A stretch of 7,935 nt of DNA. It comes from an uncultured Bacillales bacterium. GTDB taxonomy: Bacteria; Bacillota_I; Bacilli_A; RF39; UBA660. Location: assembly GCA_947089915.1 (NCBI GenBank), contig CAMUMB010000055.1, positions 1 to 7,935 on the forward strand, given 5' to 3'. The position numbers were made by a program, and so were the translations under genes. The notes beneath the pieces are model-generated. The model was given only the letters and a program-made list of their open reading frames with translations, did no database searches and was not told where the DNA came from. Numbering within the stretch: position 1 is the first letter of the stretch; each line of letters opens with the position of its first letter. Shown piece after piece: positions 1-7,935 of the stretch.

Positions 1-94
1 ATGTCATTTTCATATAAAAAGATTCAATCCCATAGAAAAAGTGATTGAACCCTATAAGTAAATATTTTTGGTTTTATTTTAGAAGAAAATAGGA

Positions 95-115
95 GTTACA
101 GATGAAATCTGTAAC
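95..115. other. Perfect 9-bp inverted repeat (GTTACAGAT-gaa-ATCTGTAAC) in the upstream intergenic region; function unknown
   Basis: Arms 95..103 and 107..115 are exact reverse complements with a 3-nt loop. No T-run follows directly (the T-run starts near 137), so a terminator role is not supported. Confidence 0.4.
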
Positions 116-207
116 AAAACCATCGCAGAAATGTGATTTTTTTTAATAAATATTGTTTTTGTATATTTTGTTAAAATTTATTCTTTAAATTATAACAATC
201 TAGGTAT

Positions 208-236
208 TTTAAAAAAATAATAACTTGTGCTATAAT
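208..236 (+). promoter_or_regulatory. Candidate sigma70-type promoter with extended -10, upstream of the avd-like gene
   Basis: TGcTATAAT at 228..236 is an extended -10 with a perfect TATAAT at 231..236. A weak -35-like TTTAAA sits at 208..213 with a 17-bp spacer. AGGAG (244..248) and the start codon follow. AT-rich background makes chance matches likely. Confidence 0.4.
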
Positions 237-258
237 ACCAACTAGGAGTTGTGATGTA

Positions 259-843
259 GTGTTGCAGGTAAATAGAAATGGTAGTTTAAAAATACCAAAG
301 CAAATAGAACAATATGAAACAAGTGCAAATAGTATAGAGGATGCAGTTGCAATCAAAAAAGCACTTACGAGTGTAAATGAACAAAAAATAAATATAAATA
401 CTTTAAGAGAAAAATTAGAAATAGAAGATCAGGAATTAGAAAGAATTTCTAAGATTCCCTTTAATGCAAATGATTTAATGGTAATTACGGTTGTAAAGAA
501 GTTAGGTGCTTATGTAATTGCAGTAACAGAAAAATCTCCTAAAAAGTTTAGAGGCGTATTTGTTAATAGAATGCAGAATTATTGTTTAGATACATTAGAA
601 TTATTATTAGAAGCAAATTTGATTCGAATGGACTCGGAAACAAATAAAATAAATCGAGAACAATTTCAAAAAGAGGCTATTGTGAAGCTAAAATTACTGG
701 GATATGTTGCGATGATTGCAGAGAGTTCTAATTGTATTTTGAAAAAACAGTATAAACAAATATCCATTCAATTAGCGGAAGCCATTAATTTAATTGCTGC
801 TTGGAAAAAGAGTGATGATGAAAGATGGCGCAGGAAGAGTTAG
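259..843 (+). CDS. avd: Avd-like accessory variability determinant (four-helix-bundle protein) with an N-terminal extension of about 73 aa
   Basis: The C-terminal ~120 aa (DLMVITVVKKLGAYVIAVTEKSPKKFRGVFVNRMQNYCLDTLELLLEANL...KLKLLGYVAMIAE...QLAEAINLIAAWKKS) resemble DGR Avd / four-helix-bundle proteins. The gene lies directly upstream of the TR and RT. AGGAG at 244..248 favours GTG 259 or TTG 262 as the start. The only internal in-frame ATG (478) has no SD. Stop is TAG 841..843. Confidence 0.75.
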   Translation: MLQVNRNGSLKIPKQIEQYETSANSIEDAVAIKKALTSVNEQKININTLREKLEIEDQELERISKIPFNANDLMVITVVKKLGAYVIAVTEKSPKKFRGVFVNRMQNYCLDTLELLLEANLIRMDSETNKINREQFQKEAIVKLKLLGYVAMIAESSNCILKKQYKQISIQLAEAINLIAAWKKSDDERWRRKS

Positions 844-922
844 GATTTTAGATTGAAAAATCTTTAATTAAGGAGAAAATTTACATTTGTGCATTTTTGT
901 TTTCGGCCCCTTTGTTGTTCTT

Positions 923-996
923 CGCGCGCGTCGTTAATAAAAACGGTAATAAGAACTAAAATAATGTTAGAAAACGGGATGTAGGAGCCCGTCCAG
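923..996 (+). repeat. DGR template repeat (TR)
   Basis: Noncoding and located between avd and the RT. It aligns ungapped with 2522..2595 (offset 1599), 63/74 identical. At 9 of the 11 mismatches this copy carries A. It contains 28 adenines and is flanked by GC-rich blocks (CGCGCGCGTCG and CGGGATGTAGGAGCCCGTCCAG) in an otherwise AT-rich locus. Confidence 0.9.
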
Positions 997-1218: not shown

Positions 1219-2250
1219 ATGAATTTAGAAGAAATTTTTACATTTGAAAACTTATATGAAGCATATCAAAATTGTCGAAAATCCAAACAACACAAAGGAG
1301 AAGTGATTCGGTTTGAGACCAATTTGGCTGTTCATATACATGAGTTAATGCAAGCTATTTATAAACGTAAATATCAATTGGGTTCTTATAAAATATTTTA
1401 TATTTATGAACCTAAAGAGCGTTTAATAGAAGCTTTGCCGTTTAAAGACAGAGTGGTGATTCGCTGCTTTTGTGATGTTTGTCTAAAACCAAAAATAGAA
1501 AAGAAATTGATCTATGATAATTGTGCTTGTCGAAAAGGGAAAGGTACTACGTTTGCAATCAATCGGCTACATCAATTTTTACGAAAAATTTATAATAAAG
1601 TAAAAAGTAATCAATTTTATTTTTTAAAATGTGATATTCATAAATACTTTCCAAGCATTCATCATGATATTTTAATCACCTTACTTGAAAAAATTGAGTT
1701 TTCGGAAGATGAAATGTGGATGATTCAAAAATTAATCCAGGAGCAACCTAATGCGGCGAATAGAGGTTTGCCTCTTGGAAATCAATCGAGTCAGTGGTTT
1801 GCCCTTTATTATTTAAATGTAGTAGACCGATATATCAAAGAAGTGCTGCAAGTAAAGTATTATGTAAGGTATATGGATGATATGATTTTAATTCATGAGG
1901 ACAAAAAGTTTTTAAAGTATTGCAAGAATGAGATAGAAAGAATATGCCATAATGAGTTAAAATTAGAACTCAATCAAAAAACACAAATTGGTATGGTCAA
2001 AAATGGAATTGATTTTTTAGGATATCGACATATTGTTACGCCTAGTGGAAAATTGATTATGAAATTGCGATATTCTTCGAAACAGAGAATGAGAAAACAT
2101 TTAAAAACAATGAATAAATTATATCAAAAGGGAATTGTTGATGAAACTTATGTATTGATTCGAAAAAATGCTTTTTACAATCATATAAAAAATACAAATG
2201 AATATTTTCTTAGACAGACAATTTTATTGGAAGATATAAATAAACTGTAA
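1219..2250 (+). CDS. DGR-type reverse transcriptase
   Basis: YMDD catalytic motif at 1870..1881 (VRYMDDMILIH). DGR-signature LGNQSSQ ([I/L]GxxxSQ) at 1774..1794. Other RT motifs include PKERLIEALPFKDRVVIRCF, ACRKGKGT, LKCDIHKYFPSIHH and GIDFLGY. The start was moved to ATG 1219 because it is preceded by GAGGGAG (1207..1213) and the typical N-terminus MNLEEIFTFENLYEAY begins there. The track's 1165 start adds an implausible leader. Stop is TAA 2248..2250. Confidence 0.9.
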   Translation: MNLEEIFTFENLYEAYQNCRKSKQHKGEVIRFETNLAVHIHELMQAIYKRKYQLGSYKIFYIYEPKERLIEALPFKDRVVIRCFCDVCLKPKIEKKLIYDNCACRKGKGTTFAINRLHQFLRKIYNKVKSNQFYFLKCDIHKYFPSIHHDILITLLEKIEFSEDEMWMIQKLIQEQPNAANRGLPLGNQSSQWFALYYLNVVDRYIKEVLQVKYYVRYMDDMILIHEDKKFLKYCKNEIERICHNELKLELNQKTQIGMVKNGIDFLGYRHIVTPSGKLIMKLRYSSKQRMRKHLKTMNKLYQKGIVDETYVLIRKNAFYNHIKNTNEYFLRQTILLEDINKL

Positions 2251-2312
2251 AAAAATGACAAAAGGTGTCTACAATGAGCAAAATTATGTTATGATATAGG
2301 TGGTGATTTACT

Positions 2313-2558
2313 ATGTTAGATTTTACTTTTTTGGAAACAGAACAAATATTTGGTGATAAACAATTAGATATATTTAAATTGTATGGAACCAAATGTGCAA
2401 TTTCGGATTTTGCTATTTTATTAGGTGGTTATGTAGCAAATAGTACATATACAAGTGAAGGAAGTACATTAAAAGACCGTACTGGTTGGTGGTGGACAAA
2501 GACTTCAGATGGAGATAATGACGCGCGCGTCGTTAATGGAGACGGGTCTAATTACTAG
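2313..2558 (+). CDS. N-terminal fragment (81 aa) of the DGR target, ending at a TAG inside the VR
   Basis: ATG 2313 is preceded by AGGTGGTGA (2298..2306). The product ...GWWWTKTSDGDNDARVVNGDGSNY* carries the front part of a WWxx[ST]...G[VA]RPAL-type module. The stop TAG 2556..2558 falls in the middle of the variable positions. Confidence 0.7.
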   Translation: MLDFTFLETEQIFGDKQLDIFKLYGTKCAISDFAILLGGYVANSTYTSEGSTLKDRTGWWWTKTSDGDNDARVVNGDGSNY

Positions 2559-2595
2559 AATGATGTTAGAAAGCGGGATGTAGGAGCCCGTCCAG
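2522..2595 (+). repeat. DGR variable repeat (VR) within the target gene
   Basis: Cognate of TR 923..996. Substitutions occur at TR-A positions 939, 940, 942, 948, 949, 954, 959, 963 and 974 (VR 2538, 2539, 2541, 2547, 2548, 2553, 2558, 2562, 2573). Two non-A differences lie at VR 2546 and 2552. The first 13 bp and last 22 bp are invariant. Confidence 0.9.
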
Positions 2596-2601
2596 CTTTA
2601 C
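2574..2601 (+). promoter_or_regulatory. IMH-like element (initiation of mutagenic homing) at the 3' end of the VR
   Basis: A 22-bp GC-rich block, CGGGATGTAGGAGCCCGTCCAG, is identical in TR (975..996) and VR (2574..2595) even though it contains 4 adenines. The next 6 nt diverge (TR ATTCAC vs VR CTTTAC), as expected for an IMH*/IMH pair that sets directionality. Confidence 0.5.
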
Positions 2602-2636
2602 CATACTCTTCTATCTCTTCCATCTCCTCGAACGAA

Positions 2637-4397
2637 GTGAGAGGGGCATGTGGACTTCCTGAAGTTGACTTTGGAGAATTACCACAAACTGCTATGGAAG
2701 ATAATTTTGCAAGACAATTGGAAAATACATACCAAATTGGTATGAAAGAAATAGGAAACAAATATACAACAGATTCTGTTGCTTATGATGATTATGACAC
2801 GCCTTTTCAGGCACGCGAATTTACTGAGTACGAGTATATGCAAGAAAGATATATTCGCTTTTTGGGTGATAAAAATGGAGCAGGAAAGGTGCTTTCAACA
2901 GGAGCGAAGGTAGAAATTGGGAAACCATATTGGGTGAAAGTAGAAAAAGTTCGTTGGTTCGTAGATAAAAAGAATGATATTGTGCTTCCTAAAATCATTT
3001 TGTTTGCAGGTGTGCAATTCAATCAGATTAGAAATTATATGGGAGATTTTGCAAATACAGATATCAAAAAATACATGGATAATTGTTTTGCAAAAGAAAT
3101 ACAGACAAATAAAGTGGATTACCTGATAACTGATACCGATACCAGTATTCGTAAAACAAGACTTCAAAATCTCAATCCAGATACCACAATCGCATCTGAA
3201 AGAAGAAAAATGACATATACCGAAATGATTCAAAATTGGATTGAAGCAGGGGAATCAGTACTATTAAGAGGACCATCTGGAATTGGAAAGACAGAACGTA
3301 TTCGTAAATTATATCCAAATTTAATCTATCTCAAATTGACCAACAATATGCTTCCTGAGAAGGTAGTTGGTTCTAGTAACTTTCAAACGGGGCAAAATAT
3401 TCCACCTAATTTTGCCAAGCAGGCGATTTTAAATTGTGCGACGGAAGAAGAAAAGAAAATGGTTGCAAGTAATATTCAAAGCTTATATGACCTTGCTGAT
3501 ACCATATATGAAAGATCAAAGACAAGTAATGAAAAAATTGTAATATTATTAGATGAACTTTTGAATGTAAAACCAGTGGTACAATCACTTGTCTATACCC
3601 TCGTTTTGAATCGGATTGTAGAAACAGGAAGTGGTTTAAAGTTACCAGAAAATACCGTGATTGTGGCGACTGGAAATCCGCAAAAATATTCTAGTGTTGC
3701 AGAAGAATTAGCAGAACCACTAGAAAAGAGATTTGATCATATATTAGATATGGAACCACGTGTTTCAGAATGGATTTATGAATATGCAATTCCAAATCAG
3801 TTGCATCCTTCTGTGATTGGATATATTGTTTCAAAATATATGGAAAATCAAAGAAGAGAAGATATTCCTTCGATTGGATACTTTTATGAAGAACCAGAGG
3901 TAGGGGAAAGGGATAAAGATCGTAATGGTTGTCGTGGTAGAACCAATGACCCAAGAGGGTGGACATCCATTTCTCATACACTATGTGCATTTGAAAAAAA
4001 TTTAGTAGAAGGCAAATATGTGGGTAAAGATGTAGAACATTTATTGCAAATGTCTGTCGCAACCAAATTGCGTGAATCTTGGGCAAGAGAATTTTTGAAT
4101 TATTATAATATTCCAACACTTACCATAGAACAAGTTGTGAGTAAAACCTATACTCAGGCTGATTTACCAAGAAATACCAATGAGCGATATGCTTGTATGG
4201 TGGCATTGTTGTTAGCTGATGAGAACCAAGTGGGTACTTGTCGAGAATTTGTTCAGCAATATTGTGATCCTGAATATCGTGAATTATATGATTTACTATG
4301 GGTTGGAAATGATGAGATGCGGATGCTGAAAATGAGTGAATTACAACAATTAGAATTGCAAAAGAGGCAAATAGAGGGAGTTGGAAAAAGTAGATGA
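2637..4397 (+). CDS. MoxR/AAA_5-like AAA+ ATPase; downstream part of the DGR target frame, with doubtful independent initiation
   Basis: Walker A GPSGIGKT at 3270..3293. Walker B ILLDE with D-E at 3552..3557. Sensor-1-like VIVATGNP and an Arg in PLEKRFDHI. The frame is open from 2559. Stop TGA 4395..4397 overlaps the next start (ATGA). Confidence 0.8.
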   Translation: MRGACGLPEVDFGELPQTAMEDNFARQLENTYQIGMKEIGNKYTTDSVAYDDYDTPFQAREFTEYEYMQERYIRFLGDKNGAGKVLSTGAKVEIGKPYWVKVEKVRWFVDKKNDIVLPKIILFAGVQFNQIRNYMGDFANTDIKKYMDNCFAKEIQTNKVDYLITDTDTSIRKTRLQNLNPDTTIASERRKMTYTEMIQNWIEAGESVLLRGPSGIGKTERIRKLYPNLIYLKLTNNMLPEKVVGSSNFQTGQNIPPNFAKQAILNCATEEEKKMVASNIQSLYDLADTIYERSKTSNEKIVILLDELLNVKPVVQSLVYTLVLNRIVETGSGLKLPENTVIVATGNPQKYSSVAEELAEPLEKRFDHILDMEPRVSEWIYEYAIPNQLHPSVIGYIVSKYMENQRREDIPSIGYFYEEPEVGERDKDRNGCRGRTNDPRGWTSISHTLCAFEKNLVEGKYVGKDVEHLLQMSVATKLRESWAREFLNYYNIPTLTIEQVVSKTYTQADLPRNTNERYACMVALLLADENQVGTCREFVQQYCDPEYRELYDLLWVGNDEMRMLKMSELQQLELQKRQIEGVGKSR

Positions 4398-4774
4398 ATC
4401 AAGAATTAGTAGAGTTACAACGAGGGAGTTCGACTGGTGTTATTATACTGGATTGTATGTATCAAGACTTAGGACAAACTGCATATATGGATGCTAGTAT
4501 AGAAGATACCTATTTGTTTCGTTATGGAAATCCCATTTTCAAATCTAAATTGGAACAACTTTCTAGCAATGGAAAAACAACGTATTTTGTCATTCGCAGA
4601 ATAGATGCATTAATTACGGTACAACAAGAAAAATATATTGGACTCATCAAAGATAGAGAATTTATGGGGTATTCAATTCCTTCCAATGTCATTATTGTTT
4701 TTACAGTAGCATCAAAAGAATCTTTAAAAAATATTGCACCCAATCTTTATCAATTGTGTGTTGTAGCATTTTAG
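4394..4774 (+). CDS. Hypothetical 126-aa protein, translationally coupled between the ATPase and the VWA-peptidase genes
   Basis: The ATG at 4394 overlaps the ATPase stop (ATGA). Its TAG stop (4772..4774) overlaps the AGGAG RBS of the next gene. No recognisable motif and no TM segment. Confidence 0.65.
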   Translation: MNQELVELQRGSSTGVIILDCMYQDLGQTAYMDASIEDTYLFRYGNPIFKSKLEQLSSNGKTTYFVIRRIDALITVQQEKYIGLIKDREFMGYSIPSNVIIVFTVASKESLKNIAPNLYQLCVVAF

Positions 4775-4785
4775 GAGAGTTGTCT

Positions 4786-6021
4786 ATGGATTTAATACAT
4801 GAAGCAAAAAATATTCTAATGATTCGCTATCCTCGTTTTGCAAGCTTACTTGCAGCTACACCAATTGAATATAATTCTCATTTAAAGTATCATACAGGGG
4901 CAACGGATGGAAAAAAGATTTTGATTGACCCTGATTATTTTGCAAGCTTAGAACTTGAGGGACGTTTATTTCTCTTGGCGCATGAGCTTATGCATATGCA
5001 ATTTCTCCATATGTATCGTTTAAAGAAGAATGGAAAAAAGAAAGATTTAGATACATGGAACGAAGCTACCGATGCAATCATCAATGCCAATTTGGTAAGA
5101 GATGGATTTCAGATAGAAGAAGATTATTTTACTTATCCAGACGCGTTATCCTATACAGCGGAACAATTATATGAAAAATTATTAAATGAAGATGGGAAAC
5201 ATACGGAATCTTGGAAGGATGATCATAGTCTTTGGGAAAAAGCTTTTGAAAAAATGGAAAAAGGAGAAGATCAGGTTCAAAAACTAGATACAGAAATTGA
5301 TGAAAAACAAGAATTTAGAGAAAATAGAGAGGAACGCATTGCAAAAGCCAAAAAGGATTTGATGAAGAAAAAAGAACAAGTATTAAAGGAATGGGAAAAA
5401 AATAAGATTCAAAATGAATTAGGCACAGTAGGGGAAGAAAATAATGCGATTGATTGGCTACTTCTTTTAAGAAGAGAAGTCAATAAAGATGAGATTATTT
5501 GGAGTAATCGACGTTCCATTGCTGAAAATAATTATGCATATAGATTAGAGGAAGACGAGTTAGAAGAAGAAGCGGAAACAGAGGTTTTAATTGATGTTTC
5601 TGGGTCAGTTAGTTTAAATTTAGTAAAATTTTTTTTAAGGATGATCAAGCCGATATTACACCATTCCAAATTAAAAGTAGGGTGTTTCAATGAAAAATAT
5701 TATGAAATGGTAGAAATAAAATCAAATAATGATATTGATCATTTTGTGATTCCAAAAGAATCGCATAAGTATGCATGGACAGAAGACTGGGATTTGGCTG
5801 TTCGTTCTTTCACAAGAAAAAAAGAAATCAATAAAATTATATTTACCGATGGAATACCCGGTCCAGGAAATATGCCCAAAGAAGATTTAAAAAATGAAAA
5901 TGTAATTTGGATTGTTTACGGAAATCCAAATTTCAAACCATGTTGTGGAAAGGTAATTCAAGTGACAGAATCAGAGTTGTTGGGAATGATGTTATCAGAA
6001 GAAAAGGGAAAGATAAGATAA
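4786..6021 (+). CDS. DUF2201-type protein: N-terminal HExxH putative metallopeptidase domain plus C-terminal VWA-like domain
   Basis: ATG 4786 is preceded by AGGAG (4773..4777), so the track's 4756 start is rejected. HELMH lies at 4981..4995 within LLAHELMHMQFLH, followed by WNEATDAIINANL, as typical of the DUF2201_N peptidase-like domain. The MIDAS-like DVSGS lies at 5593..5607. A Lys/Glu-rich linker separates the two domains. Confidence 0.8.
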   Translation: MDLIHEAKNILMIRYPRFASLLAATPIEYNSHLKYHTGATDGKKILIDPDYFASLELEGRLFLLAHELMHMQFLHMYRLKKNGKKKDLDTWNEATDAIINANLVRDGFQIEEDYFTYPDALSYTAEQLYEKLLNEDGKHTESWKDDHSLWEKAFEKMEKGEDQVQKLDTEIDEKQEFRENREERIAKAKKDLMKKKEQVLKEWEKNKIQNELGTVGEENNAIDWLLLLRREVNKDEIIWSNRRSIAENNYAYRLEEDELEEEAETEVLIDVSGSVSLNLVKFFLRMIKPILHHSKLKVGCFNEKYYEMVEIKSNNDIDHFVIPKESHKYAWTEDWDLAVRSFTRKKEINKIIFTDGIPGPGNMPKEDLKNENVIWIVYGNPNFKPCCGKVIQVTESELLGMMLSEEKGKIR

Positions 6022-6025
6022 GAAT

Positions 6026-6084
6026 AAGCTTCAAGAAATTATGATAATTTTAGAGAAAGATATTGAAGCTTTCTTTTTTATTTG
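6026..6084 (+). terminator. Rho-independent terminator ending the DGR-target operon
   Basis: Perfect 9-bp arms AAGCTTCAA (6026..6034) and TTGAAGCTT (6063..6071), followed by TCTTTTTTATTTG. The 28-nt loop is large but contains an inner AAATTA-tga-TAATTT hairpin. Confidence 0.6.
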
Positions 6085-6172
6085 ATATCATATATTTATG
6101 AGTTTGATGTATCAATATCAATTCGTAAAAAGGAATAAAAAGTGGTTGAATAATGAAAAGAGGGAGTGGACT

Positions 6173-6700
6173 ATGAACAATTATATCGATGAAAATACAC
6201 CATTTGGAATTCAAAATCAACATAATTATTCAACAATTATACCAACGGGAGAATGTATTACTTATTTAGTACAATATTGTGCGGATGAATATCAAAAATT
6301 CACTGCGCTTACAGATGAAGTAGAAAAAAACAAAGAACAACATGGTGAATACAATTACAGTTTTAAAAAAGGAGCGTCTCTTTTTGAAATTGCAATTAGA
6401 GGAAAACAGTATAGTAATATTGTTTGTGAAAATTTTCAGGAATTTGAAGATGCTATCCAAGAAAAAGGATTAAAAGACATTAGTAGTTTAGAAATCAAGA
6501 TGCATTTGAATTTTAAAAGAGATCGGGAAGAGGTAGGAACAGAACATCAAAATGAATTTGTCATTACCTTTAGACCTTATGAAATTTCTTTTTCAAGAAA
6601 ATCAAATTACAATGAAACAATGATGAATCAAATAGAAACCAATATTGATGATGTTTTAAGAAGATTCCCATCTATCAATAGCATTTTTTCAGCAAGGTAG
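6173..6700 (+). CDS. Hypothetical protein (175 aa)
   Basis: ATG 6173 is preceded by AAGAGGGAG (6158..6166). The track's 6098 start lacks an RBS and lies next to the terminator. No family recognised. Confidence 0.6.
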   Translation: MNNYIDENTPFGIQNQHNYSTIIPTGECITYLVQYCADEYQKFTALTDEVEKNKEQHGEYNYSFKKGASLFEIAIRGKQYSNIVCENFQEFEDAIQEKGLKDISSLEIKMHLNFKRDREEVGTEHQNEFVITFRPYEISFSRKSNYNETMMNQIETNIDDVLRRFPSINSIFSAR

Positions 6701-6706
6701 GGGTTT

Positions 6707-7012
6707 ATGGCAATTACCAAAGAATACAAAGATTATGTATTAGAAAAATTAGAGTGTTTGGACTTTATTACATACCGTCCTATGATGGGTGATTATCTAT
6801 TTTATTACCAAAATATTTATTTTGGTGGAATGTATGAAGAAGAACGATTTTTAATAAAAGAAACTTCTAGTAATCAAAAATACAATTTGAAAGAGGCGCT
6901 TCCTTATAAAGGGGCGAAATTGATGTATTGGGTAGAAGATTTAGAAGATATGGAACGGCTCAAAAATATGATTATAGATACTTGTAAGGATTTAAAGCCA
7001 AAGAAAAAATAG
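6707..7012 (+). CDS. TfoX N-terminal domain-like protein (101 aa)
   Basis: YRPMMGDYLFYYQNIYFGGMYEEERFLIKET resembles the TfoX_N core (MFGgyglY..g..fa.i.d..lylK). The RBS AAGGTAGGGG (6694..6703) overlaps the previous stop. Confidence 0.55.
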   Translation: MAITKEYKDYVLEKLECLDFITYRPMMGDYLFYYQNIYFGGMYEEERFLIKETSSNQKYNLKEALPYKGAKLMYWVEDLEDMERLKNMIIDTCKDLKPKKK

Positions 7013-7013
7013 G

Positions 7014-7037
7014 ACAGATTTCAAAATCTGTTTTTCT
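7014..7037 (+). terminator. Rho-independent terminator
   Basis: A 7-bp stem, ACAGATT (7014..7020) and AATCTGT (7025..7031), has loop TCAA and is followed by TTTTCT. It lies directly after the TAG stop at 7010..7012. Confidence 0.7.
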
Positions 7038-7059
7038 GATATTGTAAGGAGATTGTTTT

Positions 7060-7935
7060 ATGATTTTATTTGTCAGTGGTCGAACAGATATTGTAGCTTT
7101 TTATTCAAAGTGGTTTCTGAAACGATATCAGGAAGGCTTTGTAGACGTTAGGAATCCCTTTTATCCGAAACAAATTAGCCGTATTTATTTTGAGGATGTT
7201 GATGCAATTCTGTTTTGTACGAAAAATCCCATTCCAATATTAAACCATTTAAAATCAATTGATAAACCAATTCTTTTTCATGTAACATTAACACCTTATT
7301 TAAAGGAAATTGAACCCAATGTTCCTCCAAAGGGAAAAATAATAGAAGCGATTAAACAACTATCTTCTATTGTGGGAATTGAAAATTTATATATTCGTTA
7401 TGATCCTATTTTCCTAAGTGAACAATATAATATTTCTTATCATAAAAAAGCATTTGATCATATGTGCTCTTTATTAAATGGTTTTGTAAAGAACATTATT
7501 ATCTCTTTCATCGATGATTATCAAAATGTAAGAAAAAATAATTCAATTTTAAAAATAAGAAATTTTAAAGCAGAAGATTATCAAGAAATTGGTCTTTCTT
7601 TTTGTGAGAGTGCTCAGAAAAATGGAATGACAGTACAAACTTGTTTTGAGAAAAATAATTTAACACAATATGGATTTGTAAAAGGGGAGTGCTTGTCTAA
7701 AACCTGTGCTTATCAACTCACTGGTAAAACGTATAAAAAATGGAATGCCAGAAAATGCGGATGTGTAGAAATGGTCGATATTGGTGTTTATAATTCATGT
7801 AAACATTTTTGTAAGTATTGTTACGCTAACTATGATGAAAACCTAGTTATGTCTAATTTTAGTCAACATAATTCCAATAGTAGTTTATTGATTGGCGATT
7901 TAAAACAAGATGATGTTATTAAAAGAAGAAAATGA
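7060..7935 (+). CDS. DUF1848 domain protein
   Basis: Motifs include SGRTDIVAFYSKWF, VRNPF, ILFCTKNP, IRYDPI and the C-terminal Cys cluster CGCVEMVDIGVYNSCKHFCKYCYAN, all characteristic of DUF1848. RBS AAGGAG at 7046..7051. Stop TGA falls at the window end (7933..7935). Confidence 0.8.
   Translation: MILFVSGRTDIVAFYSKWFLKRYQEGFVDVRNPFYPKQISRIYFEDVDAILFCTKNPIPILNHLKSIDKPILFHVTLTPYLKEIEPNVPPKGKIIEAIKQLSSIVGIENLYIRYDPIFLSEQYNISYHKKAFDHMCSLLNGFVKNIIISFIDDYQNVRKNNSILKIRNFKAEDYQEIGLSFCESAQKNGMTVQTCFEKNNLTQYGFVKGECLSKTCAYQLTGKTYKKWNARKCGCVEMVDIGVYNSCKHFCKYCYANYDENLVMSNFSQHNSNSSLLIGDLKQDDVIKRRK

Follow-up and report, generated by a model that had tools for sequence, protein, structure and literature searches.

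A stop codon templated by the repeat of a DGR: a likely contingency-like locus controlling a MoxR-like ATPase gene in gut Bacilli

Why does a gene that is rewritten by a DGR carry a nonsense codon inside its variable repeat, and does this codon mark a decaying gene, the border between two genes, or an allele that the retroelement itself has written? The question is raised by a DNA stretch of 7935 bp (31% GC) from an uncultured Bacillales bacterium, below called the window, which consists of one block of co-oriented genes. The features considered here are as follows.

259–843, + strand: Avd-like accessory gene, 194 aa, ending in TAG (Pfam bAvd, 4.7e-5; NCBIfam DivGenRetAVD, 1.2e-6)
923–1002, + strand: template repeat (TR), a direct repeat with the homing tract extending to about 996 and the 3' end GATTCA, the fixed TR type
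957–959, + strand: TAA codon of the TR in the target frame, present also in the TRs of the related loci L001, L005, L226, L227 and L162
1219–2250, + strand: DGR-type reverse transcriptase, RT (Pfam RVT_1, 1.6e-18; PADLOC RT, 2.7e-35)
2313–2558, + strand: 5' part of the target gene in the present allele, 81 codons and TAG
2522–2601, + strand: variable repeat (VR), with diversified codons at 2535–2573 and the VR-type 3' end GCTTTA
2556–2558, + strand: TAG nonsense codon, cognate of the TR TAA in the codon alignment of the TR and the VR
2559–4397, + strand: rest of the target gene, comprising the remaining VR domain, a beta-rich domain, a MoxR-like AAA+ ATPase and a helical C-terminus
4394–4774, + strand: ORF of 126 aa, overlapping the stop codon of the target (ATGA)
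4786–6021, + strand: DUF2201_N partner gene, encoding a putative metallopeptidase / vWA-like protein (Pfam DUF2201_N, 1.3e-21)

The 343-aa product of the RT gene contains the motifs LGNQSSQ and YMDD, which conform to the (I/L)GxxxSQ and YxDD patterns. The Avd-like gene, whose matches to bAvd and DivGenRetAVD are both under the curated cut-offs, is situated directly 5' of the TR, and the same order is seen in related loci. The target ATG at position 2313 is preceded by the SD-like sequence AGGTGGTGA. The promoter and terminator scans yielded scores at or close to background. Downstream of the target, the 126-aa ORF is kept in L150, L151, L226, L227 and L229, and it has no family match in Pfam, NCBIfam or PADLOC. 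For the partner gene, PF09967 (DUF2201, vWA-like) is recorded only in the orthologs from L227 and L229, the window's own partner being a match to DUF2201_N. Three more ORFs are located in the window beyond the partner gene. The last of them (7060–7935) encodes a DUF1848 protein (Pfam, 9.2e-86), which is also recognised by the PADLOC model RTasDUF1848 (4.7e-29), describing a protein associated with defence reverse transcriptases.

The TR and the VR form the only long repeat in the window, 80 nt at 84% identity, the next repeat family being 34 nt long. They differ at 13 positions. Nine of the eleven mismatches in the diversified tract fall on TR adenines (939, 940, 942, 948, 949, 954, 959, 963 and 974), and the other two are T947>G and G953>T (VR positions 2546 and 2552). 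Two further mismatches, A997/C2596 and C1000/T2599, are at the 3' end, where GATTCA in the TR and GCTTTA in the VR constitute a fixed difference in every related locus, marking the end of the homing tract. Each of the two non-adenine changes is directly 5' of a mutated adenine, and both are absent from the isogenic loci L150 and L152 described below. They are compatible with tandem misincorporation after a mismatch in cDNA synthesis; some time could also have passed since the last homing event in the window.

In the frame starting from the ATG at 2313, the TR codon at 957–959 is TAA, and the VR codon at 2556–2558 is TAG. The initial annotation had proposed that the in-frame stop of the VR is templated by the TAA of the TR, with the third A changed to G, and the alignment bears this out. 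The TAG is the sole interruption of a frame of 694 codons (2313–4397, 2085 bp): past it, the frame is open from 2559 to the TGA at 4395–4397, that is, for 612 codons. The description of this frame as reopening for about 1.8 kb into an AAA+ ATPase that has no SD or ATG of its own is also correct, as neither an in-frame ATG nor an SD is present between 2559 and the GTG at 2637, the ATGs at 2560 and 2563 lying in another frame.

Gene callers split the target into ORFs of 81 and 586 aa, but it is one gene and not two. The search with the fused translation yielded 1411 matches. Among the 120 listed, about 115 are 687–742 aa long and one has 962 aa; the listed full-length homologs span 98–100% of the fused query, including its N-terminal part. 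The homologs share the pattern WW(W/Y)TK..DGDNDARVV-xxxGxxxxxxVxxRxxGARPAL, where x denotes hypervariable residues and where R93, P94 and A95 are invariant. The VR corresponds to residues 75–87 (approximately) of 694, and the 81-aa ORF breaks off partway through this conserved domain, ahead of the invariant RPA motif. In a large subfamily of 738-aa proteins, the VR residue at the position of the stop codon is mostly Y, C, F or W.

The ATPase part of the target scores 27.1 bits with AAA_5 (cut-off 22), this family being matched by all 41 of the 41 homologs, and the Foldseek matches in BFVD include MoxR-like and CobS-like ATPases. The VR-bearing domain is weakly matched by DUF6273 in eight and by Fib_succ_major in three of the 41 homologs. 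The window's own N-terminal 264 residues have no Pfam match even at E <= 1, and a profile search of the PDB sequences for the target found nothing. The Foldseek comparison of the full-length AF2 model with PDB and BFVD gave weak AAA+ matches only and nothing usable for the VR domain, with one marginal match to DUF6273 (E 0.25). In the AF2 model of the full-length allele, residues 1–260 have pLDDT of about 90. When residues 1–108 are modelled alone, the result is poor (pLDDT 52), residues 1–100 reaching only about 50 in isolation against about 90 in context. Hence the N-terminal piece does not look like an independent unit in these models, and the segment with the VR probably folds as one unit together with the beta-rich region 110–260.

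Isogenic VRs give direct evidence of an active DGR and of a templated codon that alternates between stop and sense. The protein cluster that includes both ORFs of the split target has nine members: four of 81 aa, one of 89 aa, three of 586 aa and one of 694 aa (P0126), and the residues of the window's 5' product are identical to residues 1–74 of P0126. The locus encoding the latter protein, L150 (3361 bp, SRR24860732), coincides with window positions 2291–5651 except at 17 positions, all of them within 2539–2573. Its templated codon is TTC (Phe), yielding the full-length 694-aa product, and all its TR-to-VR changes are at adenines. The same ON VR with TTC is found in a second sample (L230, SRR24860719), whose sequence likewise agrees with the window at every base elsewhere. 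The latter is a Logan contig that opens with Nextera adapter sequence at positions 1–24, AGATGTGTATAAGAGACAG; given this start and the TTC in the VR, the 586-aa gene call on it is a contig-end artefact and not an OFF allele. The third locus, L152 (846 bp), coincides with window positions 1990–2835 except at 18 positions, all within 2535–2584, and has TAA at the templated codon.

Thus, the window, L150 and L152 are identical outside 2535–2584 and have three different VRs, as is the case under ongoing homing. One strain background, recovered from different gut samples, carries TAG (the window) and TAA (L152), both OFF, and TTC (L150 and L230), which is ON; this co-occurrence of ON and OFF alleles at a programmed hypermutable site is a property of contingency loci. 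Among somewhat more distant relatives, L001 (95% identical, with the TR identical to that of the window) has TAA, L153 (96%) has TAA and a 1-nt deletion, and L076 (98%) has TGT. All these alleles are consensus sequences from metagenome assemblies. Natural alleles, which the initial annotation had suggested surveying for sense codons at 2556–2558, hence include both sense codons (TTC in L150 and L230, TGT in L076) and stops (TAG in the window, TAA in L152, L001 and L153). At the level of alleles, the proposed DGR-driven ON/OFF switch is supported, since both states have been written by the DGR in an isogenic background.

The arrangement of L076 is unusual. Window positions 52–996 (L076 positions 3130–4073) are joined there to 2574–7935 (4052–9411), so that the 5' flank of the TR runs straight into a diversified VR-like tract and the VR 3' end. 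There is no RT gene in this contig, the target lacks its initial 210 nt, and the homology shared on the 5' side amounts to only about 14 nt. This junction is either a deletion by recombination between the TR and the VR or an assembly collapse.

As to the frequency of stops, the initial annotation had noted that 13 of the 16 possible TNN codons are sense. The arithmetic is right, but the probability of the ON state that it implies is too high: as adenines are retained at about 53% in the lineage, a stop is expected in a fraction of about 0.54 of the rewrites rather than in 3/16. When the TAA codon is set aside, the adenines in six alleles of the lineage are unchanged in 53% of cases and replaced by G in 25%, T in 15% and C in 7% (n=131), with 47% of adenine sites changed as against 6 of 144 non-adenine sites. 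This spectrum yields the predicted probability of a stop, given TAA, of 0.54. The observed stops are four out of six in the window's lineage, five out of nine in the species-representative genomes, and about nine out of 16 overall. The species-representative set was chosen by a C-terminal peptide and hence is unbiased for the VR state. There is no sign of depletion of stops in these small samples (6–16 alleles), the retention spectrum itself being post-selection.

The family comparison covered 75 loci from species-representative genomes, 74 loci from metagenomes and 10 targeted contigs. Among about 15 distinct TRs of the species-representative set, nine have a stop codon (TAA or TGA) at one of three diversified positions. 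At the codon of the window's stop, the TR has TAA in the five loci given in the feature list above and TGA in L019, L074 and L229. Six codons upstream, TAA is found in L004, L025, L040, L056 and L229, and five codons downstream, in L031. At the window's stop codon, sister TRs read TGG, TAC or AAC. The cognate VR codon is a stop in five species-representative loci (L001, L005, L019, L031 and L056) and in three loci located via truncated proteins (L226, L227 and L229). It is a sense codon in L004 (TGG), L025 (TCG), L040 (TGC), L074 (TGT) and L162 (TAC). The comparison with TRs of homologous DGRs, proposed initially as a check, thus reveals TAA or TGA both at the window's codon and at two other codons, with either a stop or a TNN sense codon in the respective VRs.

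Out of 58 distinct VRs of the family, 46 are intact, seven have an in-frame stop and five are frameshifted. Each in-frame VR stop with a readable TR is situated at a templated codon, and there are zero stops in about 40 VRs for which the TR has no stop codon or lies outside the stretch examined. The search with the 81-aa fragment produced 67 clusters of short proteins, of which 28 stop exactly at the three templated codons (15 at the window's codon, and 10 and three, respectively, at those upstream and downstream of it). When viral contigs were scanned with the TR 3' end, a real TR was found behind only one of 72 matches (L162).

Several loci of the family have particular features. In L229, a single TR (about 1616–1699) templates two stops, a TAA and, six codons further on, a TGA; the corresponding VR codons are TAG and TGG, respectively. 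The VR of L037 (about 1–75), where there is no local TR, contains three in-frame stops. Frameshifts are seen in the VRs of L005, L067, L153, L009:2788 and L028 and in proteins P0140, P0145, P0151, P0157, P0160, P0162, P0166 and P0170. The types seen are +1 insertions located between GTT and CGC, which are conserved, a -1 deletion close to the VR 5' end and one +14 insertion; about 15 protein clusters end in a common out-of-frame tail, MVGLAQLYLTLQSNQSPRTE. These frameshifts may be caused by RT slippage on A-runs or by assembly errors at the hypervariable site. Paralogous targets, two or three in tandem at a spacing of about 3.1 kb, are present in L006, L009, L011, L012, L081–L085 and L124, and in L006, L009, L011, L012 and L082 they are served by a single local TR. 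The VRs of tandem paralogs are identical in some pairs and different in others.

We consider it likely that the window contains a full DGR (the Avd-like gene, the TR and the RT) with a single local target of 694 codons, and that together they constitute a contingency-like locus written by the DGR. The target would be an N-terminal hypervariable, putatively binding domain fused to the MoxR-like AAA+ ATPase, and the TR TAA would serve as one of about 13 diversified codons in the target frame. During mutagenic retrohoming, the T would be copied faithfully and the two adenines redrawn, producing a TNN codon in the VR. About half of the draws would be TAA, TAG or TGA, truncating the protein after residue 81, and the remaining draws would encode Tyr, Phe, Cys, Trp, Ser or Leu, producing the full-length protein. 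The window would represent an OFF draw (TAG). As the RT, Avd, the TR and 1.8 kb past the stop are intact, the next homing event could switch the gene ON; the switch would then be reversible within a lineage over time, and the locus would be of the phase-variable (contingency) type, with the switch written by the DGR. The 81-aa product presumably lacks the function of the full-length protein. Moreover, the overlap of the ATG of the 126-aa ORF with the TGA of the target (ATGA, 4394–4397) suggests translational coupling, and hence the stop at 2556 may be polar, lowering the expression of both downstream genes.

Why the TAA is kept in the TR is a separate question. We lean towards the view that it is kept because it can give Tyr, Trp and Phe, the stops being a cost that is tolerated, and not for the OFF state as such. 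TAA is the only adenine-mutable codon that reaches these three residues together. Among the codons of sister TRs, TGG is a fixed Trp, and TAC gives Tyr, Ser, Cys or Phe. A single G/C-to-A step leads from TAC or TGA to TAA, and this proximity, together with the aromatic reach, makes the tolerated cost a sufficient explanation.

The strongest alternative is that the templated stop itself has been selected, so that each redraw of specificity is coupled to a coin-flip on the synthesis of the sensor ATPase and, by polarity, of its partners, which could limit cost or self-reactivity. This is possible but, in our opinion, rather doubtful. It agrees with the occurrence of templated stops in nine of about 15 distinct TRs, at three codons and in several TR lineages, one TR having two of them. 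The stop alleles at the frequency of neutral draws, combined with strong purifying selection, are the signature of a contingency locus, and TAA persists at dS of about 1, even though seven of its nine single-base changes abolish or greatly cut the nonsense potential. However, the retention of TAA is statistically indistinguishable from the general conservation of the TR: the test for selection on TAA among diverged TRs is not significant, since at 81–87% TR identity all three bases are expected to be conserved about half the time. Further, TGG and TAC occur at the same positions in sister TRs, and a position favouring aromatic residues, along with G/C-to-A drift (31% GC), explains TAA and TGA without selection for stops. 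Frameshifted VRs are also common, which suggests a system generally tolerant of errors and not a switch by design.

It is very improbable that the target is a plain pseudogene, inactivated by the nonsense mutation and decaying. The gene is indeed interrupted, so that callers split it, and the VR has two non-adenine changes. On the other hand, the stop is a single lesion in 2085 bp and is situated exactly at the TAA of the TR, an isogenic full-length allele exists, and the substitution rates demonstrate constraint. Between the window and L001, both with the stop, dN/dS of the post-VR part of the target is 0.088 at dS 0.16 (1794 nt), and that of the RT and Avd genes is about 0.15 each, dS over the compared genes being about 0.16–0.29. 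In comparison with lineages at dS of about 1, dN/dS of the target is about 0.18. In eight of nine OFF loci examined, coming from different species, the RT retains SQ and YxDD, and 550–650 codons are open past the VR. The stop is neither decay nor fixed, and the target is under long-term purifying selection. The initial annotation had noted that degradation elsewhere in the locus would point to a pseudogene; what is seen instead is dN/dS of 0.09 past the stop and intact RT and Avd genes.

Recoding or readthrough, with the stop read as sense (for instance, through a suppressor tRNA or a sense meaning of TAG), would account for the surprisingly high frequency of stops at templated codons, but all three of TAG, TAA and TGA occur at templated positions in different genomes. 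In the window, TAG ends ORFs at 843, 4774, 6700 and 7012, TAA ends genes at 2250 and 6021, and TGA at 4397 and 7935. In addition, the search for tRNA genes in the window found none. Hence we regard recoding as highly unlikely.

An assembly artefact, where the consensus of a hypervariable population forms a chimeric VR with a spurious stop, has an equally small chance. All sequences do come from metagenome assemblies, one of which may have collapsed at the L076 junction, and the frameshifted VRs could in part be assembly errors. However, the stops occur at the exact templated codon in independent assemblies from different samples and pipelines, often as unmodified TAA, and the stop codon is present in the TR itself, which is not variable.

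The least probable explanation, two genuine genes, one for a small variable protein of 81 aa and the other for the ATPase, which the initial annotation had named as a possible refutation, has in its favour the recurrence of 81-aa ORFs in many assemblies, but it fails on the single proteins of about 700 aa that make up nearly all the 120 listed homologs and span both parts, on the end of the 81-aa ORF inside the VR domain with no start for the downstream part before GTG 2637, and on the confident AF2 modelling of residues 1–100 only within the full-length protein.

A contingency-like locus written by a DGR can be compared with three types of known systems. With the canonical DGRs (Bordetella phage BPP-1 Mtd, Treponema TvpA and Legionella LdtA) it shares the (I/L)GxxxSQ RT and, probably, the Avd-like gene, the TR/VR differences at TR adenines, the fixed difference at the 3' homing boundary and the evidence of ongoing rewriting. 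Published surveys stress that AAY-rich TRs cannot yield nonsense codons (PMC10907252; bioRxiv 10.1101/2024.11.15.621889). Unlike these, the TR of the window is not of the AAY-dominated, nonsense-excluding design, as it has a stop in the target frame and the codons AAA, AAG and AGA. Two more differences from the canonical systems are the position of the VR, near the N-terminus instead of the C-terminus, and the lack of a predicted hairpin 3' of the VR (no stable structure in 2575–2680, z-score +1.4).

The second type is the DGR-linked MoxR-vWA ternary conflict systems (Kaur et al. 2020, PMC7159879; Dore et al. 2024, PMC10907252), which are thought to sense invaders (PMC7159879; PMC10907252). 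The likeness is that a DGR diversifies a putative ligand-binding module around a MoxR-like AAA+ ATPase and a vWA-type partner, the latter putative here. The described systems, mostly cyanobacterial and proteobacterial, have a C-terminal FGS/C-type-lectin variable domain on the vWA component or on the NTPase/STAND (PMC7159879; PMC10907252), whereas here the variable domain is N-terminal, weakly DUF6273-like and situated on the ATPase itself, the partner is DUF2201_N, and the host bacteria belong to Bacilli and Clostridia of the gut and rumen. No third component (VMAP/iSTAND) or effector domain was recognised in the window by Pfam, NCBIfam or PADLOC.

Finally, the contingency loci based on simple-sequence repeats in Neisseria, Haemophilus and Campylobacter are similar in that a programmed hypermutable site sets the translatable state, and OFF alleles are common in natural isolates despite long-term purifying selection on the gene. 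They differ in the mechanism, since here the nonsense codon is written by templated adenine-specific reverse transcription and not by slipped-strand mispairing or inversion, and since a single event here redraws, besides the stop codon, about 12 further codons in the binding site. A literature search, with most subscription papers outside its reach, found no report of TR-templated stops acting as a switch.

In the family considered here, the nonsense-protection rule for TR codons is broken in nine of about 15 TRs examined, and the null state is found in natural genomes about as often as chance predicts, while the gene is still under purifying selection. Hence DGRs can act as ON/OFF generators besides diversifying their targets. 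There are practical consequences: in annotation pipelines, a target of this kind will appear as a short ORF followed by an "orphan" ATPase, and DGR surveys restricted to intact targets will miss or misclassify targets with templated stops. The variable N-terminal domain on a MoxR-like ATPase is an unreported architecture among the DGR-linked conflict systems, and the isogenic ON and OFF alleles in public samples provide a tractable case for studying the tolerance of a hypervariable intracellular receptor. Whether this DGR family of gut and rumen Firmicutes has evolved its in-frame TR stops as an expression lottery, about 50:50 per redraw, is a more tentative matter, and we hold it to be less likely than simple tolerance; if true, it would be a retroelement-driven phase variation that limits the cost or self-reactivity of a hypervariable receptor.
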